From a virus (taxonomy: Duplodnaviria; Heunggongvirae; Uroviricota; Caudoviricetes): DNA of 64,000 bases. Numbering within the stretch: the stretch's first letter is position 1; each line of letters starts with the position of its first letter. This document shows, piece by piece, positions 1 to 44,161 of the stretch. The notes beneath the pieces are model-generated. The model had not been told where the DNA came from, made no database searches, and was given only the letters and a program-made list of their open reading frames with translations. Position numbers and translations under genes: made by a program. The stretch is from the IMG/VR virus record IMGVR_UViG_3300026980_000004, one strand, 5' to 3'.

Positions 1-98
1 ACAACACCAAATAAAACCAATAGCCTGTCTTTTGCTTCTTGCTTGCTTATTTCGTGTTTACAAAGTTCATCTATAATTGAGTCTATTTTCTTTTCCAT
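1..98 (-). CDS. Cassette protein, partial (MEKKIDSIIDELCKHEISKQEAKDRLLVLFGVV...)
   Basis: Hand-translated. ATG at 98 lies in the first hairpin loop, the GTT core is in frame, and the ORF runs off the window. Confidence 0.6.
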   Translation of the reverse strand, partial: MEKKIDSIIDELCKHEISKQEAKDRLLVLFGV

Positions 99-125
99 AC
101 GGCTACTGTTTTTATTTGTGGAACG

Positions 126-386
126 TTAGCAACCATGTAAGATAACAAACTCCTGCCAAGGCTGTAACTGTTTCGCAAAGTCAACCGCTTTCTTTGCCTC
201 TTTATAACTTTTGAATGGTTCTACAAAGTGAATTGCAAAATCCACATCAATTAACCATGATTCTGGGGCAGTTTCCATGCTTTCAAGTCGTTTGAATTTA
301 CGGAAAACCCAATAAACACGGTTGCTAACAACAAACATACTTAATGCCTGTTGTAGTGCGTTTTTGAACATTTTTACTATTTTCAT
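126..386 (-). CDS. Cassette hypothetical protein
   Basis: Starts in the loop of site 329..446; its stop is the TTA of the GTTA core at 125. Confidence 0.7.
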   Translation of the reverse strand: MKIVKMFKNALQQALSMFVVSNRVYWVFRKFKRLESMETAPESWLIDVDFAIHFVEPFKSYKEAKKAVDFAKQLQPWQEFVILHGC

Positions 387-458
387 AATTCTACTATTTT
401 GATTGTTAGTTACTATTTAATCAGGCACTAAGCATGTTTGCAGCCGTTATAGCCAATG

Positions 459-680
459 CTAAGAAACTACATCCTTACCAAATTTCGGTAAAGACAACAA
501 CTCGAAGCGTTTTATTAATTCTGACAAAATCATATCGGTATCGTCTAATCTTGGTGGAACGGTCATAGTAAAACTTGCACCACCTGTTGAACATAATTTA
601 CTCAATGCTGATTGAGCTTTTTCGGCTAATTTTAAATTTGGAATTGCTTCGAGTTGTTTTTGAAATTCTTCGTGTGTCAT
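459..680 (-). CDS. Cassette hypothetical protein (MTHEEFQKQL...)
   Basis: ORF track; the likely ATG at 680 lies within the cassette body. Confidence 0.7.
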   Translation of the reverse strand: MTHEEFQKQLEAIPNLKLAEKAQSALSKLCSTGGASFTMTVPPRLDDTDMILSELIKRFELLSLPKFGKDVVS

Positions 681-830
681 AATTATTGATTTAAGAAGCA
701 CTGGCTATAACAGCATATACCCAAAAGAGGGGTTTTAGTGCTGAAATGAACGTCTGTGCTTCGGTTAATATTCATTGTTAATTGATAGTTTAGTGTTTCA
801 AAATCCCCTCCTTCGGGTATATGCAAACCG

Positions 831-1037
831 TTACCCACCATTTATTTGAACAGGTAATCCATTATCAATCACAAATTCAGGGCAAATACTTTTTTTAGTA
901 TATCTGCATAATTCATTGTTCCAAACTTTCCATTTAACACGTTTCGATAATCCTAATGTTTCCACAGCTTCCTCGATTGAAGAAAAAATGGTGGGTAACA
1001 CAGGGTATAGTTCATTGCTTTGTTCTTGCTTATTCAT
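831..1037 (-). CDS. Cassette hypothetical protein
   Basis: Starts in the hairpin loop and stops at the GTTA core; the core is read in a different frame (VLPT). Confidence 0.65.
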   Translation of the reverse strand: MNKQEQSNELYPVLPTIFSSIEEAVETLGLSKRVKWKVWNNELCRYTKKSICPEFVIDNGLPVQINGG

Positions 1038-1118
1038 ACTGTATTTCTTTTAATTTAAGTTCGTTTTAATTTGATAGGGCAGTGTTTCAATCACGCAACG
1101 AAACCATACCCAAGTCCG

Positions 1119-1328
1119 TTAGCAACCATACTCATTAAGTATATCTGCTACTAACATCCTAAGTTTTTTATTAAACGTACCTATTTTGGCAAGTTGGTGT
1201 TTATCCATGAAATTATGCAATCGTTCCGCAACATCTTGTGAAGTTTCTGTAAATGTACGGTTGCTAACATCGGCTATAAAATCATTGCCTTGTTCGTGCT
1301 TATCCAAAGTTTTTGTTTCTTTACTCAT
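1119..1328 (-). CDS. Cassette hypothetical protein (MSKETKT...FIADVSNR...)
   Basis: Starts in the loop, crosses the arm and stops at the GTTA core. Confidence 0.7.
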   Translation of the reverse strand: MSKETKTLDKHEQGNDFIADVSNRTFTETSQDVAERLHNFMDKHQLAKIGTFNKKLRMLVADILNEYGC

Positions 1329-1402
1329 GTCGTTTCTATTTTGAAAGTTCAAGCGTTTTTATCGGCAACGCTTCATAGCCTTGTTCGTTATAAAACATAA
1401 AA

Positions 1403-1585
1403 TTATTTGATTAATGCTTGTAATGTTTCAATAACTTCTCTTACTTGTTCGTTATTTAATTCGCAATACGAAATTACTTTTTTACCATTAAATACATTAT
1501 ATGTGGCTATTGAAACAATACCATGTAATGTATCTATTTCCAAATTTTCTTCTCCTTGTGCGTTATTTATTACCAATTTAGCCAT
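1403..1585 (-). CDS. Cassette hypothetical protein
   Basis: ORF lies entirely within cassette body 1387-1604. Confidence 0.65.
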   Translation of the reverse strand: MAKLVINNAQGEENLEIDTLHGIVSIATYNVFNGKKVISYCELNNEQVREVIETLQALIK

Positions 1586-1714
1586 AATTTTACGATTTTA
1601 TAACAACAAATATAAAACATTTATTTCAGTTTTCCAAATTTATTGTTGTGTTTTTTATTTATATTTTGTTTTTCAATTAAACTTTTCGTTATAAACGTTT
1701 TATATTTGCAACCG

Positions 1715-1927
1715 TTACCAGCAATGCTTGTGAACCCAATAGCTTTCTTGTACCGTGCAAACAGTATCTGGTATAAATACGTGCATCACACCCTTTTGCT
1801 CTTCAAGTTGTTTATAGCTTAGGAATTTTCCGCAATGTTTGCACTTACGCCACGATTGAGAAGCACTGCTGCTAACAGCACCTATACCCAATTGGGCGGT
1901 TTCATTGTTTTTTGAAGTTTCTTCCAT
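1715..1927 (-). CDS. Cassette small Cys/His-containing (possible Zn-binding) protein
   Basis: CKHCG and HKHC motifs; arm peptide LGIGAVSSS. Confidence 0.65.
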   Translation of the reverse strand: MEETSKNNETAQLGIGAVSSSASQSWRKCKHCGKFLSYKQLEEQKGVMHVFIPDTVCTVQESYWVHKHCW

Positions 1928-1996
1928 TTTATTAAGTTTTATCTGTTATTGAAAATTTGTTCATTTAATTGCCCAACTGGGCATAGCTGCAACACG

Positions 1997-2215
1997 TTAT
2001 GCGTAATGCTGTGAAATCCTTAACCATTTTTCATCTTCATACTGCTTCTTGCCATCACAATCAATCAAATACCAACCTTGTTCATCAAAGTAAGCCTTTG
2101 TGCTGTAAGTAGCATAACTCATTTCACTATCTGGTATATCAAAGTACAAACTACGCATAACATCGGCTATACTCAACGCCTTACCTTCTGCGTTAAATAA
2201 TCCTGTCTTTTCCAT
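1997..2215 (-). CDS. Cassette hypothetical protein
   Basis: MEKTGLF...ALSIADVMRS; stop at the GTTA core. Confidence 0.7.
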   Translation of the reverse strand: MEKTGLFNAEGKALSIADVMRSLYFDIPDSEMSYATYSTKAYFDEQGWYLIDCDGKKQYEDEKWLRISQHYA

Positions 2216-2296
2216 ATCAAATTTTGTTTTTAAAATTAGCTTAGTCTTTAAAAATTCGGCACTAAGCATAGCCGTGAACCGTTATGTATAATGTTT

Positions 2297-2566
2297 TTAC
2301 CCTTCCCAATCTCTATCAATATATGAAAGTTGTTCTTTTGTTTCTTCTATTGTTTTACCAATAAAATCTTCTAATTTACAACTATGTTCTTTTTCATAAT
2401 GTTTTATCCAATCATCAACACCAAAGACAACTTTCATTCTATCGTTATATTCTTTTCTAAAGGTTTCTATGTTATCAAAACTCAAAACACTATACATAAC
2501 CTCAGATATATGTAATTTTTCATTACTCTTATCTAAGTTTTGTTCTAAATTTTTACTTTCTTCCAT
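2297..2566 (-). CDS. Cassette hypothetical protein, paralog of 6777-6965
   Basis: The two share FGVxDWIKH...FIGKxIEE...IDRDWE. Confidence 0.75.
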   Translation of the reverse strand: MEESKNLEQNLDKSNEKLHISEVMYSVLSFDNIETFRKEYNDRMKVVFGVDDWIKHYEKEHSCKLEDFIGKTIEETKEQLSYIDRDWEG

Positions 2567-2619
2567 TTTATTAAATTTTGTGTTAAAACTACATATATCT
2601 GTAACCGTTAGTGGTAATG

Positions 2620-2844
2620 CTAAAACAACAAGTCAATAGTTTCCTTATCGTAATACCTTACCGTGTTTTTACTTCCGCAATTACCACATTCATCTTCAAA
2701 AGGAATATTGCACCCTTTCATTCCACAATCTTTACACCAAGTAAAAACACTATGTATGTTCTTACCAACAAGTTTTTGTTCCCAAGCACTACCGCTAACA
2801 AAGTATAAGCGTAATGCGTTTATCCATTTAATCAAGTTTTTCAT
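2620..2844 (-). CDS. Cassette Zn-ribbon-like protein
   Basis: CKDC...CGNC motifs. Confidence 0.7.
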   Translation of the reverse strand: MKNLIKWINALRLYFVSGSAWEQKLVGKNIHSVFTWCKDCGMKGCNIPFEDECGNCGSKNTVRYYDKETIDLLF

Positions 2845-2962
2845 ATATTTTAAGTTTCATTTTTTAAATTTAACCATGTGTAAGCACTACGCTTATACTC
2901 GACCGTTGTGGTGCATTAAAACGTACGCTTCGCCACCACAACACAGTATATAGGCAATAAGC

Positions 2963-3178
2963 CTACTTATTCCAGTGCTTTTTATAGCCCTCAATAAATT
3001 CCTTATCAAATTCACTTTTCCACCCGCATTTAGGGCAATTAAATTGTTCACCATCAAATTTGGTTCTCGGCCACCTTTCACCTTTAAGTGGGTAGCTTGT
3101 TCTTGGTTTACAAAGTTCATCACCGCAATACGGGCTATAACCTTGTCTTGTCATTAAATTATCTCTTACAATACTCAT
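2963..3178 (-). CDS. Zn-ribbon-like protein encoded wholly inside a hairpin loop
   Basis: YCGDELC...CPKCG; lies between the arms at about 2943-2966 and 3198-3225. Confidence 0.75.
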   Translation of the reverse strand: MSIVRDNLMTRQGYSPYCGDELCKPRTSYPLKGERWPRTKFDGEQFNCPKCGWKSEFDKEFIEGYKKHWNK

Positions 3179-3236
3179 AGTTTCGTTCTTTTAAGTCGTA
3201 GGCTTACAGCCCATATACTCGGCACGTTAGTGTCAA

Positions 3237-3413
3237 TTATTTTGTCCAACAATGCCAACAATCATTACATACAAGTTTTGTATCATCCCAAAAGTTCGTT
3301 CTTATTTCAGATTTACCACAATTTGGACAAAATAACTGTTCGCTTCGCCCACTAACAACAGATATATTCAATTGTTTGTGTCTTTTAAATAAGTTTTTAA
3401 TAAATTTTATCAT
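3237..3413 (-). CDS. Cassette Zn-ribbon-like protein, 58 aa (not in the ORF track)
   Basis: Hand-translated MIKFIKNLFKRHKQLNISVVSGRSEQLFCPNCG...CNDCWHCWTK; shares GRSEQL with 4164-4394. Confidence 0.7.
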   Translation of the reverse strand: MIKFIKNLFKRHKQLNISVVSGRSEQLFCPNCGKSEIRTNFWDDTKLVCNDCWHCWTK

Positions 3414-3475
3414 TTGTATTTCAATTTAAGTTTGTATTCAACTGAATATATCTGCAACCGTTGTAGCACATACGC

Positions 3476-3685
3476 TCAATCTGTCCGTTCAAACAAAGGA
3501 ATGTAATGCGTGACCCACCCGTCTTTCAAACCAAATTTCACAGTCGAGCCTTGTTCCCATTGCCACCATTTTTTACCATCAAACCAAGCCTGCCCATCTT
3601 CATCAGTACCAGCAGGTGTTTTAGCCTTGCACTGAGTATTTGGTTTAGGTGGGTTTGAGCTTTCAATCCAATTTTCGTTATTCAT
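3476..3685 (-). CDS. Cassette protein, DUF551-like
   Basis: WIES..PP N-terminus and VTHYIPL C-terminus. Confidence 0.55.
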   Translation of the reverse strand: MNNENWIESSNPPKPNTQCKAKTPAGTDEDGQAWFDGKKWWQWEQGSTVKFGLKDGWVTHYIPLFERTD

Positions 3686-3794
3686 TTTCGTTCGCTTTAC
3701 GATGCTACAACAATGGGTATAGTGAATAGCCCATTGAAGGCATCAGGTTAATATTAAATTTTGTGGGTAGGGCTACTCACCATACCCGAAACCG

Positions 3795-4016
3795 TTATCC
3801 ACCATTTGACAACAACTTCTCATGGTCATTAATCGACCTTTGAAGAAATGCCATTTGGCTACTAACTTTTGCTTGAATATTGTAAACTGCACCCGAATCA
3901 AAGTTTAGTTGCTCATTATAATCTTTGAAGGTTTGCCAAAATTCTTCAAGTTCCATTAACTCTTCTTTTCTCTGCCCAATGTGCTTTTTGATATTTATGT
4001 CTTTCAAATCAATCAT
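3795..4016 (-). CDS. Cassette hypothetical protein (MIDLKD...)
   Basis: ORF track; likely ATG in the body; stop at the GTTA core. Confidence 0.65.
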   Translation of the reverse strand: MIDLKDINIKKHIGQRKEELMELEEFWQTFKDYNEQLNFDSGAVYNIQAKVSSQMAFLQRSINDHEKLLSNGG

Positions 4017-4163
4017 AATAAAAACGGTGGCTAACAAAGTATATAGCACATAGCCTGTCAGCCATTTTTGAAACTATGTGCGGTTGTTAAATTATCTTCT
4101 CTTTTTTTTTAGGTCTGTGAGTGGCTACGTGCCATATACAAACCGTTGTAGGCAATTAGTTTG

Positions 4164-4394
4164 CTACTCTTCTACGTTTCTATCACACTGTAAGCATTGC
4201 CCGAAGTATATTTCTTTGTCAGTTAATTTGTTGCCACATTCGCAAACTAACTGTTCGCTTCGCCCTACAACATCGTGTATGCGTAAGGCTTGAAGTATCT
4301 TTTTAGCCTCAAACACTCTTCCTCTTTGAAAATCCGTTTGAGGGTACTTAAAATACTCAATCGTGTGTTCAAGTTGTCTTATTATTTCTTCCAT
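4164..4394 (-). CDS. Cassette protein with C-terminal Zn ribbon
   Basis: ALRIHDVVGRSEQLVCECG...CLQC. Confidence 0.7.
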   Translation of the reverse strand: MEEIIRQLEHTIEYFKYPQTDFQRGRVFEAKKILQALRIHDVVGRSEQLVCECGNKLTDKEIYFGQCLQCDRNVEE

Positions 4395-4445
4395 TGTATC
4401 AGAGTTTTTTTGTTAATAAATCACCCTACGCATACACGAGGAACG

Positions 4446-4745
4446 TTAGCCGTAATTTTGAAGAAGCTCCCGTAAAGCATCCTTATTACTTACAGCTATA
4501 TCATTTCTTTGCTCCCCATCTAAAAACCAAGTCCAAAATTCAGTAGCATTTATCGTTATCCTACCTTTTTTGTAATAGTATTGTGCAGGTCGCATACTAC
4601 TAATACTTATATATCCAGTACCTAACATCAACCGCTTTTCAAATCCAAGTTCAACCAAGTCCTCTTCGGATAAAAAACTACGGCTAACAACAGGTATATT
4701 TAATGCCTGTGTTTCTGCGTTATTTAAGTTCTGTTCTTTTTTCAT
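4446..4745 (-). CDS. Cassette hypothetical protein
   Basis: MKKEQNL...ALNIPVVSRS; stop at the GTTA core. Confidence 0.7.
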   Translation of the reverse strand: MKKEQNLNNAETQALNIPVVSRSFLSEEDLVELGFEKRLMLGTGYISISSMRPAQYYYKKGRITINATEFWTWFLDGEQRNDIAVSNKDALRELLQNYG

Positions 4746-4856
4746 CGTTATCTCTATTTTTAAAGTTATTGCTATTAAATCAGGCACTAAACATACCCAA
4801 ACCGTTGTAGCACATTAAAACGATGCTACAACAATGTATATAACACATACACTCGC

Positions 4857-5057
4857 TTATGTAGGCTCTTTTAATTCCGCCCAATGTGTTGGCAATAAAC
4901 TCAGTCGATAGTCTCTTGTCGGTACTACTGCAAAAGTTCCGTCCGTCCATTTAATCACACCAATATCCCAAACGTTAAAGTGTTTATTCCATCTCGCACC
5001 GAGTATTCGTGTTCCATCTTTGGGCGGGGTTTGTTCTTTAATTGAAATCCATTCCAT
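4857..5057 (-). CDS. DUF551-like protein encoded wholly inside a hairpin loop
   Basis: MEWISIKEQTPP...THWAEL pattern; lies between AAC 4832 and GTT 5112. Confidence 0.7.
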   Translation of the reverse strand: MEWISIKEQTPPKDGTRILGARWNKHFNVWDIGVIKWTDGTFAVVPTRDYRLSLLPTHWAELKEPT

Positions 5058-5112
5058 TTTATTAAATTTTAGTTGTTAAAATCGCTCGTTTTACGTGTCA
5101 TATACTTTGCCG

Positions 5113-5412
5113 TTAGGCAACATTAGCTTCGTACTTTAAATACGAGGGCTTTATATCGTAATTTTTACCTTTGTATTCTACATTTACATATCTACCTTCA
5201 AAGTTCGCCCAGCAGTAATTAACCTTTACTATTGTGTTAACTGGTATTGATTCTTTAGGGTTCTTTTCAAAATAGTGTATATCTGCCATACAAACAGCCC
5301 TCTCAGTTACTACTAACTTGTTTCCTTTTTCGCATACATATAGTCCGTTTTGTATTTCAATTGCTGTTTTATTTTCGTAGTGGTGTCCAAGCAATTTAAT
5401 TTGTTCAATCAT
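5113..5412 (-). CDS. Cassette hypothetical protein
   Basis: ORF track; ATG in the body; stop at the GTTA core. Confidence 0.65.
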   Translation of the reverse strand: MIEQIKLLGHHYENKTAIEIQNGLYVCEKGNKLVVTERAVCMADIHYFEKNPKESIPVNTIVKVNYCWANFEGRYVNVEYKGKNYDIKPSYLKYEANVA

Positions 5413-5557
5413 AATAACGTTGCCTAACAAAGTATAAAAACAAAAGCTATTATTAGGCTGTTTATAAGGCTTTTGCTTGTTAATTAATATAGTTTCTTTA
5501 CTCTAAGTTTTTGCGTACTTACACGCTTCAATTTTTATACAAACCGTTAAGGCGAAT

Positions 5558-5755
5558 TTAATACTCGCCCATTTGTCCCCTCATTTTTTCTTCAAAACAG
5601 TCGTTACATTCGTAGCAACCTTCAAAATTCCAATTCTCATCATACATTTTGTGTTTTTCACCTGTTTTTTCTTCACCACAAACATCGCATAAAAAACTCG
5701 CCTTAACACTATGTATAGTGCATGGCTGCTCGGTTTTTGAATGTTTTGTACTCAT
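5558..5755 (-). CDS. Cassette Zn-ribbon-like protein
   Basis: CDVC...CNDC motifs. Confidence 0.7.
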   Translation of the reverse strand: MSTKHSKTEQPCTIHSVKASFLCDVCGEEKTGEKHKMYDENWNFEGCYECNDCFEEKMRGQMGEY

Positions 5756-5827
5756 ATTTAATTTTATTTAAGTTTTGGAACTATGTGGCTTTGTTCGGAG
5801 GCAGCCACGTCACCATACATTTTAACG

Positions 5828-6148
5828 TTACCCAACATTTAAGTTAGGCAACTTTGATTCTATGTGAAATTTCGGACTAATCTGCTTCCCTCTCTGCTCA
5901 AGCCAACTGTAACAATCCAATCCTACTTGTTGCCTTATCAATCGAATACCACGCCATCGCAGCTTACCTTTGGTTATTTCGCCTTTGATAGGGGGTTCTG
6001 CCATAGTTCGTAAAGCAGTTGTAAATAGTTCTTCTTCCAGCCTGCGAACTTCATCAAATAAACGTTGGGTAACATTGGCTATATTTAATGCCAAGTCCTC
6101 GTCAACTTGAAAGTTCGGGTGTTCAATTCTTTTTAGTTCATATTTCAT
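5828..6148 (-). CDS. Cassette hypothetical protein
   Basis: Arm peptide ALNIANVTQR; stop at the GTTA core. Confidence 0.7.
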   Translation of the reverse strand: MKYELKRIEHPNFQVDEDLALNIANVTQRLFDEVRRLEEELFTTALRTMAEPPIKGEITKGKLRWRGIRLIRQQVGLDCYSWLEQRGKQISPKFHIESKLPNLNVG

Positions 6149-6190
6149 AATTATCGTTTTTTAAGTTGGCACTAAACATAGCCGTAGCCG

Positions 6191-6400
6191 TTATACGCAA
6201 TGCTTTGAAACATATCGGTCAGCGTGTTTTTCAAGTTTATCACTATTGTAATGTGAACCTAATGATTCGCCATCTAAAGCTGCTTGTAGTTGGTCGATAA
6301 CACGCTGTTCATAACCTGCCTTATAAGCATTGCGTATAACATCGGCTATATTCAATGCCGATTTTTCAACCTCATTCAAGTTTTCGTTTTCTTTACTCAT
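6191..6400 (-). CDS. Cassette hypothetical protein
   Basis: Arm peptide ALNIADVIRN; stop at the GTTA core. Confidence 0.7.
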   Translation of the reverse strand: MSKENENLNEVEKSALNIADVIRNAYKAGYEQRVIDQLQAALDGESLGSHYNSDKLEKHADRYVSKHCV

Positions 6401-6466
6401 TCTATCTGTTATTTAAAGTTTTTACTATTTAATACGCCACTAAATATAGCCGAGAGCCGTTGTAAA

Positions 6467-6715
6467 TCATTTGCCATCAAAAGTTTGGTTGCATTTTTGG
6501 CAGATGTCTAAATCCGAAGTGAACATTATTAGTTTACAGTCTTTACCATTAGGGCAAACGTCACTATCGTTATTTACAACATTGGCTATAAATAATGCTT
6601 TATCAGCAATAGCCTTTAACCTTTTTATTCTTTGCATCTTCGTTTCAGATGTAGGCTTTATTCCATATTTAGATATTTTCTCTAAAGCCTTTTTGTATGT
6701 TTCTAATTCAGTCAT
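6467..6715 (-). CDS. Cassette protein with C-terminal Cys cluster
   Basis: ALFIANVVNN...CPNGKDC...CQKC. Confidence 0.7.
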   Translation of the reverse strand: MTELETYKKALEKISKYGIKPTSETKMQRIKRLKAIADKALFIANVVNNDSDVCPNGKDCKLIMFTSDLDICQKCNQTFDGK

Positions 6716-6776
6716 TGTATTAAGTTTTGTATATATTAAGTCGCACTATTCATAGCCTTTACCGTTATGGGTAATA

Positions 6777-6965
6777 TTATTCCTCCCAATCCCTGTCTAT
6801 GTGTGAAATTACTTTTTCAACTTCTTCAATATCTTTTCCTATGAAGTCAGTTAAATTATATTTAGAATGTTTTATCCAATCATTCACACCAAAAAGTAAT
6901 TTCATTTTACAGTTGAATCTGTTTTTAAATTCTTCTAAATTATCTAATGTTAAAATACTACCCAT
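6777..6965 (-). CDS. Terminal cassette protein, paralog of 2297-2566
   Basis: The likely start is the ATG in GTTATGGGT. The longer ORF-track N-terminus overlaps another ORF. Confidence 0.6.
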   Translation of the reverse strand: MGSILTLDNLEEFKNRFNCKMKLLFGVNDWIKHSKYNLTDFIGKDIEEVEKVISHIDRDWEE

Positions 6966-6988
6966 AACAACAAATATATGTAATAAAA

Positions 6989-7117
6989 TTAAAATATCAA
7001 ATACCCAATCAAAATCCCAAAAAGAATTAATCCAATACCAATGGAAATAATAACCACACATCCATAATTCTTTTTGGGTGTTCCGTCTAAATTATAATCT
7101 TCTATTCCATCAAACAT
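6989..7117 (-). CDS. Small membrane protein, 42 aa (MFDGIEDYNLDGTPKKNYGCVVIISIGIGLILFGILIGYLIF)
   Basis: Hand-translated; one hydrophobic segment; abuts the array boundary. Confidence 0.55.
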   Translation of the reverse strand: MFDGIEDYNLDGTPKKNYGCVVIISIGIGLILFGILIGYLIF

Positions 7118-31818: not shown

Positions 31819-32079
31819 TTACCACCTCACGATTAATGCTTCCAGTTTATCACCTAATATTGATGATCCATAATTTTCATATTTCATTTTAATTAATGGA
31901 TAATATTCACTCCCATTTGGAGTTGTAATAATAAAAGGTAATTTTCTTTTATCCTCACTAATTTGTAGTGCATCTAAAATAAAATCATTTAAGTTATTTG
32001 GTTCTCCATCAGAACTACGCACAACATTGTATAAATGTTCATTGCCTTGTTCGTCTGTAATTTTAAGTTCAAGTTTCAT
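31819..32079 (-). CDS. Cassette-type protein at the solo hairpin site
   Basis: Starts in the loop and reads ...HLYNVVRSS across the ACAAC core. Confidence 0.65.
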   Translation of the reverse strand: MKLELKITDEQGNEHLYNVVRSSDGEPNNLNDFILDALQISEDKRKLPFIITTPNGSEYYPLIKMKYENYGSSILGDKLEALIVRW

Positions 32080-32150
32080 ATTTAATTTGTGATTGATAAT
32101 TAAGTTCATTTAATAGGTAACGCCATTTATACTTTACCTTTAGCCGTAAT
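32014..32150. repeat. Degenerate solo attC-like site
   Basis: ACTACGCACAAC-attGTATAAATGttcattgcc...ggtaacgcCATTTATACtttacc-TTTAGCCGTAAT; the core GTT appears mutated to TTT. Confidence 0.7.
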
Positions 32151-32833: not shown

Positions 32834-32891
32834 TATATTCAAATATAAGCAAAAAAATATTAGAAACAAAAAAAATCCCCAAGAAATATTT

Positions 32892-33125
32892 TCAAAGGGT
32901 TTTAAATTTATTCTTTGATTTTTCTAGTTTATAATCAAATAATTCAATAAATTCAATCTTTTCCTTTTTAGTAGAATTATTAAACATATTTACAATAAGA
33001 ACATCCCAATCACCGCTTTCAATCATTAGATCACGGTATGAATCAGTAAGTTCTTTAATGTTCTTTGAATTATATCCTGTATAAAGATAATCTTCAGCTT
33101 GCTTATCGTATAATCTATAGTACAT
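32892..33125 (-). CDS. Hypothetical protein, paralog of 36536-36778
   Basis: YRLxDKQ...YxxTGYNS...ELxxSY...DWD...EKSKxKF. Confidence 0.7.
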   Translation of the reverse strand: MYYRLYDKQAEDYLYTGYNSKNIKELTDSYRDLMIESGDWDVLIVNMFNNSTKKEKIEFIELFDYKLEKSKNKFKTL

Positions 33126-33512
33126 TGTTATTATAGAATTGAATTAAATATTATGTCTTTTTCTTTTGGATTTAAATTAATTACTTTCCATATTGCTTGT
33201 TTATGAAAAGTAGAACCGTTGAATGCCAATTTAAGAATATGTCTTATTGCATCCATATCAGATTTAAATTTATTTTTATCATCAATTTTTTGAATTTGAT
33301 AATCACCGTCTTGAGAACCCTCACAAATGAAAATACCCCAACCTTCCGATTCTGCAATTAAATTAATTTGATCTATTGACATAACATAATTTGGTTGAAT
33401 TAATTATTCAAATATAAGCAAAAAAATATTAGAAACAAAAAAAAATCCCCAGAAACTTTCTGAGGACTTTAAATCAATCAATTTAACCTTAATCAACTAT
33501 GAAAGAAAATTG

Positions 33513-33587
33513 TGGGTGCGGAGTGATTCGAACACTCGACCTTTGTCTTATGAGGACACCGCTACCAACCAACTGAGCTACGCACCC
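33513..33587 (-). tRNA. tRNA with CAT anticodon (Ile2 or elongator Met)
   Basis: GGGTGCG/CGCACCC acceptor stem, TAGCTCAGTTGG D-arm, CTCATAA anticodon loop, GTTCGAATC T-loop. The G1-C72 pair argues against an initiator tRNA. No encoded CCA. Confidence 0.9.
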
Positions 33588-33594
33588 ATTTTAA

Positions 33595-34077
33595 TTAATA
33601 TTTACTATTTAAAATTGCATTTAAAGTTCCTTTACTTGAAATGTTAAATTTTTCCATCACTTTCTTATAACTTTTTACTTTGTTATGATATTCTTTTATT
33701 TCTTGATAATTATATTTTTTTAGAAATGAAGCTGCATGTAATGCCTTTTTTAATCTAATTTCTTCTGGGATATCATACATATTATCTGAATGTGTACCTA
33801 TTCCAATATTATCCCAAGAATTATCACTAGAGATACTATTTAAATGTCTAACTACAATACCTTCTTCGAAAATTTTATCACCAAATTTTTGATATGCTTG
33901 TAGTCTATGAAAATAGACTCTAATGCTTTTATTATGAAACCTAATTCCGAAACCTAAATATCCAGAATTTGAATATCCTTTTAATTCAATCCCTTTAGGA
34001 TTAATACATTTTCCATCATTTGTTATTCTATAACCCTTTTCATATGCAAATAATAACGCATCATTCAATTTACTCAA
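33595..34077 (-). CDS. Free-standing HNH homing endonuclease
   Basis: VYFHRL...VVRHLN...DNSWDNIGIGTHSDN; lies between two tRNA genes. Confidence 0.85.
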   Translation of the reverse strand: MSKLNDALLFAYEKGYRITNDGKCINPKGIELKGYSNSGYLGFGIRFHNKSIRVYFHRLQAYQKFGDKIFEEGIVVRHLNSISSDNSWDNIGIGTHSDNMYDIPEEIRLKKALHAASFLKKYNYQEIKEYHNKVKSYKKVMEKFNISSKGTLNAILNSKY

Positions 34078-34107
34078 TTTATTTTATTTTAATCTAATTT
34101 TTATTAG

Positions 34108-34670
34108 TATCAAGGGCGGGACTTGAACCCGCACGAGCTATGCTCACAAGATTTTACTTACTACTATTACTTTCGTAATCCGCATTTGCGTTGTAGTCTG
34201 GACTATATCTTCACCATATTTAATTTAATAAACTTAGGTGTTTCGTACATAGTCTCTGAACCTTCCTCATTTAAAGATATATACATTATCTTTATTTAGA
34301 GGCTCGGCTGCTGATTGTCCAATATCAGTTATTTTTATAACATTCACACCCGTCATTTCTAACCATGTTGTAGTTAACTGATCTCTAAGGATATTCCAGC
34401 AATTCTCGAAATTACTACCATTTAGTTTCCCAAATAGCGACCAATGTTGTTCAAGATAACGATGTAATTTTGAGTGATTATTTTTTTACCCTTTCTCTAT
34501 TATAGAGAAATACACACTCTCTACATCGTTTTCTTTCGACAACTTCATGACTCCCACAATCTACACATATTCTCATAGTATTTACATTAAAAATACTATG
34601 GTAAACACATTAAATTAATTTGAAGCCAAAAGTTTTAGTCTTGCGTGTCTACCAATTCCACCACCCTGAC
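34108..34670 (-). tRNA. tRNA-Leu(UAA) split by a group I intron (exons 34670-34637 and 34156-34108)
   Basis: 5' exon GTCAGGGTGGTGGAATTGGTAGACACGCAAGACT plus 3' exon TAAAATCTTG...GGTTCAAGTCCCGCCCTTGATA gives CAAGA-CTTAAAA-TCTTG with a long variable arm. Confidence 0.9.
34157..34636 (-). ncRNA. Group I self-splicing intron (480 nt)
   Basis: P AATTGCTGGAA, Q AATCAGCAG, R TCAGAGACTA and S AAGATATAGTCC occur in order. The 5' exon ends in U and the intron ends in G. Confidence 0.9.
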
Positions 34671-35165
34671 ATTTATCGAGACTTATTCCCGATTTTGTAT
34701 TACAAATATATACATTGTTGATTTACCAAACAAGAAATATTTTCATTTTTTTTTTATTTAAAATAGAATTTAAAAACTACTCGATCATTATTTACGAACC
34801 CTACATTCATCACGCTTCACTTTTTTTTAAGTTAAACATAAATTTAAATAACAATCAAGTAGTTAATAGTAAAATCATTGCATGGGTTTTCGACCATTTA
34901 ATTGTATTCTATTTCGCAATGATTTATTCTTTTAAATCTTTAATAGATATTTTCAAAACGCTTTAAAATTGGTAGTACCAACTCTTTTCTTTGCTCCAAT
35001 AAACCCTTTTCAATATATCCAAGGGGTCTCTTAGAACCATCACTCATCATAACATAATTGTTTTCGAGTTGTTCATGTGCTTCATTCCAATATGCGTTTA
35101 ATGCATTCATGATAATGCCAGATTCTAAATCATCTAACTCAATTGTTTTTTTCATTTTATTTTAA

Positions 35166-36026
35166 TTAAGCTTTTTCAAATTCTTCAATCACTTTTAAAA
35201 TATCCGAACCCTTCCATTTTTTACCATCAGTTTCGTATATACCACCATAATTTTTAATAAAATTATATAAACTTTTTAAATGATTAATTTCAAAAGTCAT
35301 ACAACCAACTTTAACATTGTTGTTATCAATTTTAGTTACAGTATATCCATTAACTTTAATACCATAAGGTTTAGCCCATTTACCATTTTGGAATACTATA
35401 TCATAAGATCCACCAGTAGCATATAAAGTATTAGATTTAGAAGAATAATATAAGTAATAACCTCTTAAAGTACCTTCCACACCATCTAAATAATATATAT
35501 TACATGGTACTGAATATCTTCTTTTAGCTTCTTCAATTAAAGCTTTCTGAACTTCTTCATTAGTTGCGGGTCTAGCATATTTAAATGCTTCTTCATTACA
35601 TATACAAGTTATACCATTATGATCTAATTTTTCAACCCATTGACCATCACTAAATCCATACCCATAAACAACACCAATTTCATTTACAGAAGTACAACAA
35701 AATATTTTGTTTGGGTTATGGGTAAGTATATACCATTTACCAACTTCTGGTTTAATTGATTCTATTTCAGATGCTAATTTAAGTGCTAAATCCCAATCTT
35801 TTGGTAATTTTAAAATAGTTACATTTGGGTGATTACCGTGTATTGGATTTGAATGACAACTGTACATTCCATTACCACCATATTGATTTACTTGTATATA
35901 ATCTTCTTCAACAGAATAACTATCAATATTTTTTTGATAACCTAACGAAATTAATTCTTCGATAAAGGCTTTTTTTAATGTAAATGAACCTTCTATTGCT
36001 AATTTATTTTTAAATATTTTATTCAT
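35166..36026 (-). CDS. Hypothetical phage protein
   Basis: 286-aa ORF with no recognised motif. Confidence 0.7.
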   Translation of the reverse strand: MNKIFKNKLAIEGSFTLKKAFIEELISLGYQKNIDSYSVEEDYIQVNQYGGNGMYSCHSNPIHGNHPNVTILKLPKDWDLALKLASEIESIKPEVGKWYILTHNPNKIFCCTSVNEIGVVYGYGFSDGQWVEKLDHNGITCICNEEAFKYARPATNEEVQKALIEEAKRRYSVPCNIYYLDGVEGTLRGYYLYYSSKSNTLYATGGSYDIVFQNGKWAKPYGIKVNGYTVTKIDNNNVKVGCMTFEINHLKSLYNFIKNYGGIYETDGKKWKGSDILKVIEEFEKA

Positions 36027-36535
36027 TTTGTTTCGGGTCTTTCTTATTTTAATACTTTTAAAATATCTTCTTTTCCAATCACAATCCTCCTTAGAATCAT
36101 ACTCAATGATTTATCATTAATTTCATTAAGTAAATCAGATAATAAATTTTTATGTTTATCATCATAAGGTTCTAAGTCATCAATTAAGTAGTCATCAATA
36201 TAGTATTCAGAATTTGCACAAGGAATAAATTTTTTACCTGAATCAGTAAAACCACTACCATTTAGAACAGTTAATGTTTCACCTGTTTTAGTATTTAATA
36301 CCTTCTGATATCGTTCAAATGCTTTCATGTGATTTTAATTTATCAATACAATATTTTAATTTCAAATAATCTTTAATCGGCATGTTAACAATACACCAAT
36401 CCGAATGGTATTTTTCAGTGAAACTTAATTCAGACGGATTAAATTCATATGAATTATTTAATTCCAAATGACTTAATATTTCCGTTACCTCAACAAATTT
36501 AACGAAAGATTCTGGATTTACAAATAAAGTAATTG

Positions 36536-36778
36536 TCATAACAAATTTTCTTCAAACTTTCTTTTAGATTTTTCAATTACGAATTCATTAGATTCGATTT
36601 GTTTTAATTTATCTGATTTAGATAGGTTATTAAAAATTTCCAAATCCTCATCATCCCAATCAGATTCTCCAAAATAATCTGAATAACTCTCAATTAATTC
36701 ATTTAATGAAGTTGAGTTATAACCAGTTGCCATATAACGACCAGTCTGTTTGTCAAATAATCTGTAAAACATTCCCAT
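36536..36778 (-). CDS. Hypothetical protein, paralog of 32892-33125
   Basis: Same shared motifs as 32892-33125; own promoter at 36799. Confidence 0.7.
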   Translation of the reverse strand: MGMFYRLFDKQTGRYMATGYNSTSLNELIESYSDYFGESDWDDEDLEIFNNLSKSDKLKQIESNEFVIEKSKRKFEENLL

Positions 36779-36875
36779 TTCATTGTTGTTTGATTAATCA
36801 AATATAAACAAAAAATATTATAAACCAAAAATCCCCAAGAATTATTCAAGAGGATTTTTGATTAGATATTCTATT

Positions 36876-37241
36876 TTAAACAAATTGATTGATATAATTA
36901 ATCAAATTTGGATTTTCTTTCTCAATGAATCTAATCCCATATTCGATATCTCTTGGAGAAGAAACAGCATCTGTACTATTACCCATATCATCCGTACCGA
37001 TAATTATTGCATTTGATACAATTGGATATCTCCAATCTGGATACATAAATGCACCCTGAATTGTTTCGGGTCTAAGCAAAGATTCATCATCGCAGTACAT
37101 TGCATCACCATTAGCATAACTAATAGGACAAGTAAATGTTGTACATTCATTTCCGATTGCCTCATATATGGAATCTAGTGAATTCTCAATGTTAATTTCA
37201 GTAACTGTCTGATTCTCAATGTCAATTTTGATTGCTCTCAT
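36876..37241 (-). CDS. DUF3846-like phage protein
   Basis: MRAIKID...LDSIYEAIG...MYCDDE.LL...GTDDMG pattern. Confidence 0.5.
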   Translation of the reverse strand: MRAIKIDIENQTVTEINIENSLDSIYEAIGNECTTFTCPISYANGDAMYCDDESLLRPETIQGAFMYPDWRYPIVSNAIIIGTDDMGNSTDAVSSPRDIEYGIRFIEKENPNLINYINQFV

Positions 37242-37308
37242 GTTGATATTTGTTTTTGATTGATTGAATGATCAAATATAAGAAAGTATCTTCGAATTTC
37301 CAAAAAAA

Positions 37309-37605
37309 TTAATTTAATAATTCAAATAAAATTGATTTTAATGCAGTCTCCAAGGTTTTATCATTGGTATTGCATGGATAGATTTCAAAATCAGGATTGT
37401 ATTCAAATAACCTATTTCCGTCCTTTGTGAAACGAACATTACCATTACTATCATCATACTTCTTATTCATCCAAACCCAAGACCATATCGTGTAATAGTC
37501 TCTTACAGATAAATCCAAATAATTTGGATAGTTTGGTAGATAAAAATCCAATACAGTCTTAATATCGGATTTCATTTGCTCTCTTACTTCTTTTGTGACT
37601 TTCAT
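37309..37605 (-). CDS. Hypothetical protein, paralog of 39471-39791
   Basis: MKVTKEV..MKSDIK.VLD.Y...YPCNTND.TL.TAL. Confidence 0.75.
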   Translation of the reverse strand: MKVTKEVREQMKSDIKTVLDFYLPNYPNYLDLSVRDYYTIWSWVWMNKKYDDSNGNVRFTKDGNRLFEYNPDFEIYPCNTNDKTLETALKSILFELLN

Positions 37606-38158
37606 AACAGTTAGAATTGATTGAATGATCAAATATAAGCAAAAAAATATTAGAAACAAAAAAAAATCCCCAGAAACTTTCTGAGGACTTTAAATGAATA
37701 AAAGTAATTAAATTTTATTTAATATTTAATCCGCATTTGAACCCAAGATAGCCGCAATTACAACCCAAGCTGCAACAAAGACAAATACCAATGCTCTACC
37801 GATTTTCTGAGCCTTGGTTGGCTTATATTTATCCTTTTTCTTTTTATCATTGTCATCATCCGAAATTGAGAAGTCAAACATGGACATTGTGGGATTATCT
37901 AAATTAGATAATTCAATTAAATTTGATGATGTTTTTTCAACCATAACTGTCTTTGGGTTAAAGACCGAAATAAACAGAATTCCAATAATTGCAAATAGTT
38001 TAGTCATTTTTTTTTGTTAATTATTTTGTGTTGTATTATCAATCATATATGCAAATATACAAATAACATTCTAATAAACAAAAAAAATCCCCAGAAACTT
38101 TCTGAGGACTTTAAATCAATCAACTTAACCTTAATTACAAAAACACAATCTTAATATT

Positions 38159-38473
38159 TTAAAATAATTTATTCCAAACATTGTTTTCTTTAATTTTAAA
38201 TGAAATATCTTCATTGAAATGTTTACATAAACTATTTTTTAAGCCGTCAATAGTTTGCCCACCTTTTCCAATGATAAGTCCAGGTCTATTTGATTCAATT
38301 AAAATAATAACATTGTTCTTGTTTTTATTTACTTTAATCGAACTAACAAAATCCAAAGGATATGTATTTTGCAGTTGATAAAAATACATATAAATTTCTC
38401 TACGATATTCTTTTGAATTAATCTCATGTGTTAATCCAAGAAGTCTTTTTAAATTATTTAAAACCATAATCAA
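38159..38473 (-). CDS. Type II KH-domain protein (ribosomal S3 N-terminal-like)
   Basis: ILIESNRPGLIIGKGGQTIDGLK...ISFKIKE. Confidence 0.75.
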   Translation of the reverse strand: MIMVLNNLKRLLGLTHEINSKEYRREIYMYFYQLQNTYPLDFVSSIKVNKNKNNVIILIESNRPGLIIGKGGQTIDGLKNSLCKHFNEDISFKIKENNVWNKLF

Positions 38474-39470
38474 TTTATTTATTCCTTATAATAATTTCCA
38501 AATCCAGACCCATTTTATTTACTTTTAATTTTAATTCATCAAGAATTTCCTCTAATGTTAGTTCCTTAACGGTACATTTATTCATATTATTTTCTTCAAT
38601 ATCGAAGAATTTATGAATTGATTGAACTGGAATATTTCCAAATGAATCTTTATCATGCGAAAATTCCCATGTATTAATACCTCCAAAGTATGTATATTCC
38701 CAATAATCAATAAGATTATTTGTGTGATCATTTGGATACGCTTTATCCAATAGTTCTTTTAACTGTTGAAAAGTACCGTTATTTTGAACAATACATTTAC
38801 CTTCTGCCAAATCTTTTACACTATAGATTTTATCATTTGAAATTAATTCATTGATTGAAACAGGTTTATATTTCATTTTAATTAATTTTTATTTGCCAAA
38901 TCAGATATCAATAAATTCATTGGATTATTCTCATTATCCAAATTCATATAAAAATAAAGTAACTGAGTTGCAATTTCAACTTTCGAAATTTCAGTCTCAA
39001 ATTTAAAAATATTTGACTGATTTTCTAATTCATCTAAAATGAATTCAATTCCATTTTCCCTATCCAAAATACCTTCTGGAAATGAAAGTACAAAATTGGT
39101 AAACTTTTTACCTGTCTGATAAACAAAAGTATATAATTTATTTTTGTTTACCCAAATTCCATTTCCCTGTGTTTCTCTATCCATAATTTATAAGGTTTGA
39201 TTGAATAACCAAATATAAGAATAAAATTGTTAATAACAAAAAAAATCCCCAGAAAATTTCTGAGGATTTTAATTAAATTAATTTAAATAATTACTTTCCG
39301 ATATTCTATATCTAGGATAGTCACTGGATACAGAAATTATTTCCTGAATTGAATCTTTCATTCCATAGTAAGCAGTCCACCAAATTGAAATAATTTGATT
39401 ATTATTTAATTTAACTTCTGCACTCCATGAATTTTCTAATTCATTTAACTTAATATCTTTCATATTTAAA

Positions 39471-39791
39471 TTAATTTAAAACTTGTTCAACTGCTTTTCT
39501 CAATGCTGTCAATAATGTTGCATCATTTGTATTACATGGATAAAATACAAAATCGGTATTTCTCTCCAATAACCTCTCTCCATTTTCTTTAAAATCCACA
39601 TTCGGATTTTCCTCCACAATACCGTTTATTTTGACCGTACTAGGCGAATAACGGTTTTGATATACCTTATGCCATATAGCAAACAAAACGCTCTCAGGGA
39701 ACTCTGTAATGATTCCAGAAACGTTATAATAATCCAATACCACTTTAATATCGGACTTCATAGTTTCAAATACTTCTTTTGTGACTTTCAT
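39471..39791 (-). CDS. Hypothetical protein, paralog of 37309-37605
   Basis: Shared N- and C-terminal motifs and about 50 bp of identical 5' DNA. Confidence 0.75.
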   Translation of the reverse strand: MKVTKEVFETMKSDIKVVLDYYNVSGIITEFPESVLFAIWHKVYQNRYSPSTVKINGIVEENPNVDFKENGERLLERNTDFVFYPCNTNDATLLTALRKAVEQVLN

Positions 39792-39897
39792 AACAGTTAG
39801 AATTGATTGAATGATCAAATATCGTAAATATAATTTTAAAAACAAAAAAAATCCCCAGAAAATTTCTGAGGACTTTTAAATATCTAAATTGATTTAA

Positions 39898-40854
39898 TTA
39901 AACCAATTCAAGGATTTTTCTCTTACCTCTTGGTTCTTTACCATCGTGTAATGCCTTGTAAGAATCAATTCGTTCGTTTTCGGTCTTGACAATTTGATTG
40001 AAATTTTTGACTGCCATCCCAATATTCAAATCAATTGATTTACTTGAAATAATTGAATCCGCTTTTGTGGTTTTAATCATGTCCAAGCTCATTGAATCAT
40101 GCTCTAGGATATAATTTAACCCAGCATAGGCCAAATATCTATTCATGGCCGTATAGCCCAATTCTGATGCCTCTAATTTCATTCTGTCATAAGCATCCTG
40201 AAATTTAGATGTAGGGAAAAATGTACCTTTGGTAGCCTCATAAAAGAACGGCAAAATATGTTCCTGCTTTAACTCCTGAGACTGCATTTTCTCTTGGAAT
40301 TCAAAAGCCAAATCATTATTATTTACCCAATCTTCGATCACTGGAATAAGCAAATCAAAATTTATTCCAAGCTTATTTGCATGGGTATTGATTGTATTTC
40401 TGACCTTTGCAAATACCTCATTTCCTTTGGATATTCTAGTCATGCCATTTAGACAAACCAAACGCTTAAACATTTCCACCATACCAAAAGACTGACCACC
40501 TGCAAGACCTCCGTTAATTCCTAGCATGGAACTAACTTTATCATGCAATTTTCTCTCCCCAGATTCTGTAGGAAATTCAAATCTAACTTGGTAGTTACCT
40601 CTTGCATCAATTTTGCCCGATATATCGAACTTTAAATTTCTGTCTGTAAATTCATTACCAAAAATCTCAATAATATCATTGGGTTGAGTTAATTTGAAAT
40701 TTTTGGATACAAATCCATACAATACCTTGTCATCGTTAATGACCGCCTTATCGTACCCAGATGGCAAAACAATGTTCGCATCGGATAGGACTGTTTTTGC
40801 ATTTACCAAATTTACTTTGGTTTTCAAATCAGATAGTTTGGTAGATATTACCAT
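39898..40854 (-). CDS. DUF932-like protein, copy 1
   Basis: GFVSKNFKL, RLVCLNGM; close paralog of 44901-45854. Confidence 0.7.
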   Translation of the reverse strand: MVISTKLSDLKTKVNLVNAKTVLSDANIVLPSGYDKAVINDDKVLYGFVSKNFKLTQPNDIIEIFGNEFTDRNLKFDISGKIDARGNYQVRFEFPTESGERKLHDKVSSMLGINGGLAGGQSFGMVEMFKRLVCLNGMTRISKGNEVFAKVRNTINTHANKLGINFDLLIPVIEDWVNNNDLAFEFQEKMQSQELKQEHILPFFYEATKGTFFPTSKFQDAYDRMKLEASELGYTAMNRYLAYAGLNYILEHDSMSLDMIKTTKADSIISSKSIDLNIGMAVKNFNQIVKTENERIDSYKALHDGKEPRGKRKILELV

Positions 40855-41012
40855 AATTTTTAGTGACTTGGTTTTGCCCCCAAGCGGGTTTTCATTTAAC
40901 ACTCTACAAAGTTAATTAACTTTTTTAGAATACAAAACATTTATTTAAATTTTTTTCAAAAAAAAATCCCCAGAAACTTTCTGAGGAATTTTAAATATCT
41001 AAATTGATTTAA

Positions 41013-41540
41013 TTAAACTGTGTGATACTGAATTGCTTCTGCCAAATATTCCAGTTTAATTTCTTTTGAATTGTGCAATTGTGCAATTACTCTAGAAATT
41101 TGAATAATTGAATCTAATTTAATTAAATCAATATTATCTAACTTACTATATGCATTACTTAGTAACGCTCTACCTGCCTCGGATAATTTAAATTCAGGTA
41201 AAACATTTGATTTTGCTTCATTTGAACGTTTCACAACTAAATCAACACTCTCTGATATTCTATTTGAAATAATTTCAGAAATATGAGGAACTGAAATTTC
41301 AAGATTCAAATGAATTTTTTCCAAGTCTCTCAAGCCATACTCTTCTGTTGTAAAATCTACCTCATCAAATAATTCAGATAAGATAATTAAATCATTATCA
41401 GTCGGTTTCTTATCATCTACATTAGAAGCCTTGACCAAGCGAATTGTAAATCCACCTAGTAAGGCAATTTCGAATGCTCTAGACAAATGTGAGTACAATC
41501 CAGTAACATTGTCTCTGTCTAATAAAACTAAATTTCTCAT
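41013..41540 (-). CDS. Internally deleted ComM/YifB (Mg-chelatase-like) homolog
   Basis: RAFEIALLGG, LEKIHLNLEI...SES..V..R...AK and ISRVIAQL.NSKEI...LAEAIQY match ComM segments. No Walker A or B motif. Confidence 0.65.
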   Translation of the reverse strand: MRNLVLLDRDNVTGLYSHLSRAFEIALLGGFTIRLVKASNVDDKKPTDNDLIILSELFDEVDFTTEEYGLRDLEKIHLNLEISVPHISEIISNRISESVDLVVKRSNEAKSNVLPEFKLSEAGRALLSNAYSKLDNIDLIKLDSIIQISRVIAQLHNSKEIKLEYLAEAIQYHTV

Positions 41541-43783: not shown

Positions 43784-44161
43784 ATGGCAAATGCCTTAAA
43801 AACAGCGGACTTTAAAGCCTTGGTAGAAATGAGCAAGGCGGAATTGGCAATTGAATTCGTTTCAAATGCTGAAAAAATTGCAACTCTTAAAGCTAACCTT
43901 AAAAAGCTTGAGGAAAGAAATAGCCAAATTGAGGCTATTTTGTTACCCCAAATTGGGCTAAAATATCAGCCCAAAGATACAGACTTTATTTTGATGCCAA
44001 AGCTTGTCAAAGGGCGCAAAAGTACCTCATACGCTTCAATTGTTAAGGATGCACCCAAAGCTTGTAAACTTTCGGATACTCAAAAAGCCGTATTTGCGGA
44101 CTTGGTTTCTGAAAATACCAAGTTTGGCGAAGACAAAAAGACTATTCAAATTATTGAATAA
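43784..44161 (+). CDS. Hypothetical protein with coiled coil
   Basis: TAACTTTG promoter at about 43724; terminator ATCCCTTGC-TTTT-GTAAGGGAT-T7 at about 44171. Confidence 0.75.
   Translation: MANALKTADFKALVEMSKAELAIEFVSNAEKIATLKANLKKLEERNSQIEAILLPQIGLKYQPKDTDFILMPKLVKGRKSTSYASIVKDAPKACKLSDTQKAVFADLVSENTKFGEDKKTIQIIE

Follow-up and report, generated by a model that had tools for sequence, protein, structure and literature searches.

Integrons spread antibiotic resistance. In these platforms, of class 1 as well as sedentary chromosomal, a tyrosine recombinase lies beside an attachment site that is not a hairpin (attI), and it serves tandem single-gene cassettes with GTT/AAC cores. The two ends of a cassette become complementary again only once it is excised as a circle, and of each cassette site (attC) one strand folds better than the other. 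According to Smyshlyaev et al. 2021 (PMC8138268), the integron integrase IntI needs an insertion in its catalytic domain for folded sites. Integrons are defined and detected by this insertion together with attC models, so that a system devoid of both would be missed by standard tools. Here we describe such a system at the start of a 64,000-nucleotide stretch of DNA (the window) from the Caudoviricetes record IMGVR_UViG_3300026980_000004, which shares with integrons the layout, the GTT/AAC cores, the end complementarity and the better-folding strand described above. We put at roughly 0.8 the probability that a Bacteroidota-type phage carries here a complete platform for gene capture, integron-like in build and run by the recombinase adjacent to it.

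Some of its relatives have been met before. Qi et al. 2023 (PMC9892861) reported a cluster of attC sites lacking an integron integrase (CALIN) in the lytic Polaribacter phage P12002L, P12002L_attC1 being the only site on which IntI1 failed. We find this site to be a short member of the present family, and phage P12002L to have several more. A cognate recombinase, an attI site or a distinct system were not named in that study (PMC9892861), whereas the whole platform is present here. Furthermore, our main array does not qualify as a CALIN, its recombinase lying 52 nt from the first cassette, whereas two satellite arrays of the same genome would. The enzyme of phage Ingeline has been interpreted as a lysogeny integrase (PMC8776804), and the accessible part of Smyshlyaev et al. 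2021 (PMC8138268) assigns no function to the insert-less members of the integron-like tyrosine recombinase subgroup. A literature search, with most subscription journals outside its reach, returned no paper describing the system, and its novelty is thus not proven.

The cassette array, its attI-like site and its recombinase

The preliminary description, made from the letters of the window, counted 22 hairpin sites and 22 cassette bodies, and this count is exact (sites 3-127 to 6578-6766, bodies 125-329 to 6764-6968). It also had the array begin at base 1, which is not so, as the array runs on across the junction of a circular record of 265,845 bp, whose ends overlap by 127 bp and in which a T4-like Gp23 capsid gene is present; the independent assembly ERZ508509 holds the joined junction region contiguous and identical. 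The whole array comprises 28 cassettes (numbered 0-27), six of them left of base 1 and 22 with their bodies in the window. These bodies measure 29-317 bp and the hairpin sites 86-289 bp. CGTT terminates all 27 hairpins, and the last body (27) is followed by a left arm only, the terminal half site. The G+C content of the array is 34%, versus 26% for the genome, and no Rfam family came near its cut-off for the hairpin sites.

As had been claimed, every body in the window opens with GTT[A/G] and closes with the reverse complement of its own start (22/22). Over the 7 variable bases that follow the GTT, a body matches its own end at 6.41/7 on average (6.43/7 for all 28 bodies), a value reached by none of 100,000 shuffles, in which shuffled pairs gave 2.6±0.3, and the outer ends of one hairpin match in situ at only 2.07/7. 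The proposed match length of 7-15 bp with at most one mismatch was right at its lower end and too short at its upper end, the real range being 7-17 bp; exact own-body matches span 4-16 bp. Likewise, the fixed frame AAC-N4/6-TAT stands as a frame, with a wider spacing of about 4-7 nt and a few sites that carry TAA or TAC in place of TAT.

In the form that the circle would restore, the minus-strand fold consists of an R stem of 10-14 bp, a bulge of 2-4 nt and a second stem, about 15 bp long, which is capped by a variable loop. The bulge is one-sided: all 27 hairpins carry 2-4 extra nucleotides on one arm, which form an unpaired spacer between the R and L stems. The sites are diverged (56% mean column identity) and, as first noticed, their arms vary while the pairing persists; double-sided changes affect 13 of the 15 stem pairs, a result seen in 0/500 shuffles and not approached by slid registers. 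Moreover, mismatches are strongly polarized, with 47 G.T on the minus strand and 1 on the plus strand, and one G.T pair is retained in 21/23 sites. The chromosomal arrays of Bacteroidota carry their genes on the opposite strand, and their G.T bias is 52:4 on the non-coding strand. As the bias tracks the polarity of the site and not the coding strand, the fold belongs to the DNA site rather than to an mRNA. The minus strand is shown to be the strand selected to fold.

The recombinase, which had been predicted to lie left of base 1 or in the host, is found in the left flank. It is a 267-aa protein and the sole PF00589 match of the genome, encoded on the minus strand at positions 262,963-263,766 of the source record (coordinates G000; 17118-17921 in L001, the L-numbers being our labels for retrieved loci and contigs) and transcribed away from the array. 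Its catalytic residues R133, K158, H217, R220, H243 and Y252 are all intact, and invariant in 36 homologues. The first cassette body begins at G000 263,819, 52 nt upstream of the recombinase start codon, with no hairpin before it; it is preceded by an AT-rich TATATA motif and then A|GTT. In 39/39 related viral loci a GTT[A/G] stands 45-54 nt upstream of the recombinase (background 10%), preceded each time by the near-invariant TATATA, with 32 different first-cassette sequences behind the motif. This recombinase-adjacent GTT site is an attI-like site. As attI and the hairpin sites share the GTT bases, sequence does not locate the cut more closely than GTT.

The enzyme is compact in its insert region. 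The IntI-specific insertion is absent, the interval from the catalytic lysine to HxxR being 56 aa, versus 103 aa in IntI1 and two Bacteroidota IntI and 67-72 aa in XerC/D. It scores below all IntI and Xer model cut-offs, best with the XerA model (NF040815, 177 versus a curated cut-off of 220), TIGR02249 giving 158 versus 265 with a gapped alignment. In a further likeness to integrons, the top solved-structure match of its predicted structure (predicted local distance difference test score, pLDDT, 88) is IntI4. At E<=1e-40 it has matches in no fewer than 4,602 protein clusters. A quick tree, on which all our phylogenetic statements rest, places the phage enzymes and those of the cultured phages Ingeline and Freya in a supported clade apart from XerC/D and IntI, and thereby also apart from the XerC/XerD-dif systems. 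In Cellulophaga phage Ingeline_1 the related recombinase is accompanied by an attI-like site and by an array, which is short.

The differences from integrons are as marked as the likenesses. The phage system has neither the IntI insertion nor a conserved extrahelical base (the 15-bp stem aligns gap-free in 21/23 sites), its core is just GTT[A/G], and the R box consensus GTTRRRY/RYYYAAC fits only 2/28 cores. Integron genes lie on the top strand behind an attI promoter, whereas the phage open reading frames (ORFs) all lie on the bottom, folded strand, directed towards the recombinase and often starting within a site; the chromosomal relatives have top-strand genes. Genes can also reside inside the phage hairpin loops, and the platform is phage-borne. 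Since the system departs from strict integrons in four features, namely the insertion, the extrahelical bases, the R box consensus and the orientation of the genes, the earlier label integron-like holds, whereas integron in the strict sense does not. Taken by its sequence, the array is a variant of the integron design, complete at 28 cassettes and endowed with its own recombinase, whose catalysis is predicted only.

The individual elements are arranged as follows. Cassettes 0-5 extend from G000 263,819 to the contig end (L001 17974-20000), left of the window, and the end of body 5 (1-5, plus strand) marks the crossing of the circular junction. Hairpin site 5 (3-127) ends in GTT at base 127. 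Bodies 6-27 (125-6968, plus strand) start at 125, 446, 830, 1118, 1387, 1714, 1996, 2281, 2607, 2905 and 3226 (6-16) and at 3460, 3794, 4145, 4445, 4804, 5112, 5546, 5827, 6190, 6459 and 6764 (17-27). Hairpin sites 6-26 (327-6766, folding strand minus) occupy 327-448, 709-832, 997-1120, 1266-1389, 1602-1716, 1874-1998 and 2159-2283 (6-12), 2498-2609, 2797-2907, 2940-3228, 3354-3462, 3709-3796, 4033-4147 and 4269-4447 (13-19), and 4686-4806, 4830-5114, 5426-5548, 5705-5829, 6071-6192, 6338-6461 and 6578-6766 (20-26). The terminal half site, with its promoter, lies at 6966-7005 (minus). Cassettes 13 and 27 (2259-2516 and 6743-6984) are paralogues with 68% DNA identity and different hairpins, and a lone member of the site family, whose crossover core is degenerate, occurs outside the arrays at 32023-32141 (covariance model E 3e-5).

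Movement of the cassettes and their cargo

The cassettes had been proposed to be excisable single-gene units, and sequence comparison between unrelated phage contigs does reveal movement of units bounded at GTT. Cassette 14 (2607-2907, plus) has a 91% identical copy in L030, where it is third in the array among other neighbours, and an 88% identical copy in L282 covers exactly 4445-4806, that is, cassette 20 (plus). Copies of cassette 24 (5827-6192, plus) that are 77-90% identical occur in eight other viral contigs (L196-L203) with differing neighbours, and in most of them the homology begins and ends within a few bases of the two GTT. In L299-L302, a single cassette is followed by different successors directly past GTT. 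These comparisons show that cassettes move between phage genomes with GTT breakpoints. An all-against-all cassette comparison in the first locus set had found only duplicates from identical phages.

The matches to hairpins extend left into the end of the body and halt at the right GTT, from which it follows that the moving unit is a body with its right-hand hairpin; its polarity is, by these breakpoints, the same as that of an integron read away from attI. The alternative unit, a left hairpin with a body, is ruled out by the homology breakpoints of both the hairpin matches and the cassette copies. Variation may also exist within the population. Indeed, 4/27 truncated contigs stop 126-127 nt past a crossover G, a distance of roughly one assembly k-mer; the p value, about 2e-5, is a rough one, computed post hoc on loci that are not fully independent. 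Two assemblies of the phage, the source contig and an independent Logan contig, both break at base 127, directly after GTT. Such contig breaks at crossovers are a suggestive, if indirect and post hoc, sign of variation of this kind.

The cassette ORFs in the window (58-106 aa, 126-7061, minus) are all antisense to the polarity of the sites and read towards the recombinase. Fifteen of them start in a hairpin or in the terminal half site and read through the arm, 5 start in a body and 2 lie wholly in a loop; for the 28 cassettes the numbers are 17, 9 and 2, the last two in an enlarged loop. The core takes part in the coding sequence, GTT being read in frame as valine in 16 of the 17 hairpin-starting ORFs and the TAA formed by the core serving as the stop of 11 ORFs (28 cassettes). 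The loop-borne genes belong to cassette 15 (2905-3228, plus), whose near-empty body measures 38 bp and whose 71-aa gene occupies 2963-3178 (minus), and to cassette 21 (4804-5114, plus), with an empty 29-bp body and a 66-aa DUF551 gene at 4857-5057 (minus). Elsewhere, the hairpin of cassette 20 heads at least eight other proteins, unrelated ones, with a nearly unchanged version of the 21-aa leader that it encodes. One apex motif, found at many loci, is common to empty 29-bp bodies and to minimal hairpins of 45-47 bp, and this shared motif suggests that a cassette may be a scaffold with two places for cargo.

Promoters were found within the sites themselves. Near 6971, the terminal half site holds a consensus Bacteroidota promoter (TTTG, 19 nt, TATATTTG) directed into the array, and site 10 holds a second array-directed one at about 1607-1640. 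Consensus promoters of this type are common on the minus strand of the window, and genome-wide the motifs number 44, versus 5-15 in shuffles; their frequency supports a host within the Bacteroidota group. A cluster of them (TTTG, spacer, TATATTTG) lies on the minus strand at 32840-43972.

Proposed mechanism and competing explanations

By analogy with integrons, the adjacent recombinase, rather than a host IntI or Xer, would bind a cassette site folded from its single minus strand and exchange one strand within GTT, in a scheme that we take from integron biochemistry (PMC8946536). Exchange with the double-stranded attI would insert a cassette, and exchange with a second site would excise one as a circle, thereby restoring the R stem, the resulting junction presumably being resolved by replication as in integrons (PMC8946536). 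The one-sided bulge of 2-4 nt and the fixed G.T wobbles could set the choice of strand, in place of extrahelical bases. Since the genes lie on the folded strand, transcription would come from promoters in the distal and internal sites and run towards the recombinase, with none at attI, and the hairpin would often provide the start codon and the first 15-45 codons, the GTT core providing the stop. The platform likely samples small early proteins from a pool common to Bacteroidota phages.

Several observations weigh against this reading. The phage recombinase does not have the insertion that IntI requires for folded sites, and the deeper branch order of the quick tree lacks resolution. Some cassette copies follow a sequence that is neither attI nor a hairpin, and the cassette order is the same in a second assembly of the source phage. 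Finally, the cassette proteins tested have no informative match in PHROGs, Pfam, PADLOC or the ESM Atlas, one DUF551 protein excepted.

The enzyme at work could be another one, a canonical host IntI or host XerC/D moving the cassettes while the phage recombinase serves integration or dimer resolution. A true IntI is indeed present in two of the five array-bearing Bacteroidota genomes tested, the homologues from Ingeline and Freya have been interpreted as lysogeny integrases (PMC8776804), and some phage-borne attC sites are recombined by IntI1 (PMC9892861). However, the other three genomes have no IntI over the cut-off, IntI1 failed on the family member P12002L_attC1 (one site only), and the integron core GTTRRRY is as rare as stated above. 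Nor would a host enzyme fit the fixed spacing of 45-54 nt between recombinase and attI in 39/39 loci, or the insert-less homologues found at the head of, or next to, several large chromosomal arrays among those examined (one within the retrieved region of 4/6 arrays, heading three of them). We hold the involvement of a host enzyme to be quite unlikely. It is similarly improbable that the phage enzyme and its cassettes recombine as double strands, in the manner of Cre/lox or Xer/dif, the hairpin being incidental or related to RNA. The absence of extrahelical bases, an insert region of 56 aa that is shorter still than that of XerC/D, and the best score being that of the XerA model would all agree with such chemistry, but an enzyme that reads double-stranded sequence has no need of arms that vary freely while their pairing is kept (13/15 pairs covarying), nor of a wobble bias that tracks the polarity of the site and not the coding strand.

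Small genes shuffled by stem-loops also recall the promoter-stem-loop (PeSL) modules of T4, which are near-identical repeats recombining by homology. In both cases the units reshuffled are small early genes, and the phage is large and T4-like; the present sites, in contrast, are diverse and come with a dedicated recombinase and an attI. The repeats might then be mRNA elements (for processing, termination or translation), with genes exchanged by homology between them as in PeSL, a proposal which accords with the folding strand being the mRNA strand in the source phage, with the many ORFs that begin in a loop and with the promoters in two sites. The chromosomal arrays, however, fold on the non-coding strand, the sites are too diverged at 56% mean column identity for homologous exchange, and the breakpoints fall at GTT, the linkage of attI to the recombinase being left unexplained as well. 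The chromosomal folding strand and the GTT breakpoints largely refute this explanation, which we regard as very improbable.

Relatives in Bacteroidota and further arrays

A covariance model of the sites, the means by which the preliminary description proposed to look for relatives in Bacteroidota, matched 71 of 151 genomes sampled from the phylum of one Bacteroidota metagenome-assembled genome. Related sites are thus present in about half of the sampled genomes, yet standard integron tools would miss them. Some Bacteroidota chromosomes hold arrays that reach about 25 cassettes, with their genes on the top strand (L244-L245, L238-L239, L240-L241); the recombinase measures about 280 aa in the arrays where it is divergent and about 346 aa in those where it is co-oriented. 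Relatives sought through the gene left of the phage recombinase included no close ones.

A broader proposal, for which we see slightly better than even chances, is that of a second integron class across Bacteroidota and their phages, in which a minimal recombinase would act on folded single-stranded sites with neither the IntI insertion nor extrahelical bases. In its phage form, this class would make cassettes by inserting coding DNA at one or the other apex of a minimal hairpin, a scaffold that gives start, leader and stop. If the small enzyme does recombine folded single strands, such chemistry can do without the insertion, and this would bear on the origin of IntI from Xer-like enzymes. The empty bodies, the minimal hairpins with their shared apex, the loop-borne genes and the hairpin heading many proteins together offer a handle on the genesis of cassettes. 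The proposal, if true, would also partly explain the mass of tiny uncharacterized genes in Bacteroidota phages, and an 'integrase' in some of these phages would be no sign of lysogeny.

On the Acinetobacter plasmid NZ_CP130330 (L189 4037-6140), a related insert-less recombinase precedes tet(X3), whose unit begins behind an attI-like GTT and closes with a left arm with an end match of 7/10. This tet(X3) may be a captured cassette of the insert-less system.

The source genome has two more arrays, each headed by its own attI-like site and without a full recombinase. At about G000 243,850-245,050, the attI-like site is preceded by a remnant of the 5' end of the recombinase gene (120 bp at 87.5% identity) and leads about four cassettes with decaying cores, one of whose loops contains a 99-aa gene. 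At about 193,850-195,200 (minus strand), an attI-like site with about four cassettes has no recombinase, and its first hairpin is 87% identical to the window site at 4033-4147, the preceding body being different. Four kb from this array, a 409-aa ORF (about G000 199,505-200,734) is reverse-transcriptase-like by eye only. An IS607-like pair, a serine resolvase (188 aa) and a TnpB-like gene (392 aa), lies about 1.2 kb left of the recombinase (L001 14205-15950).

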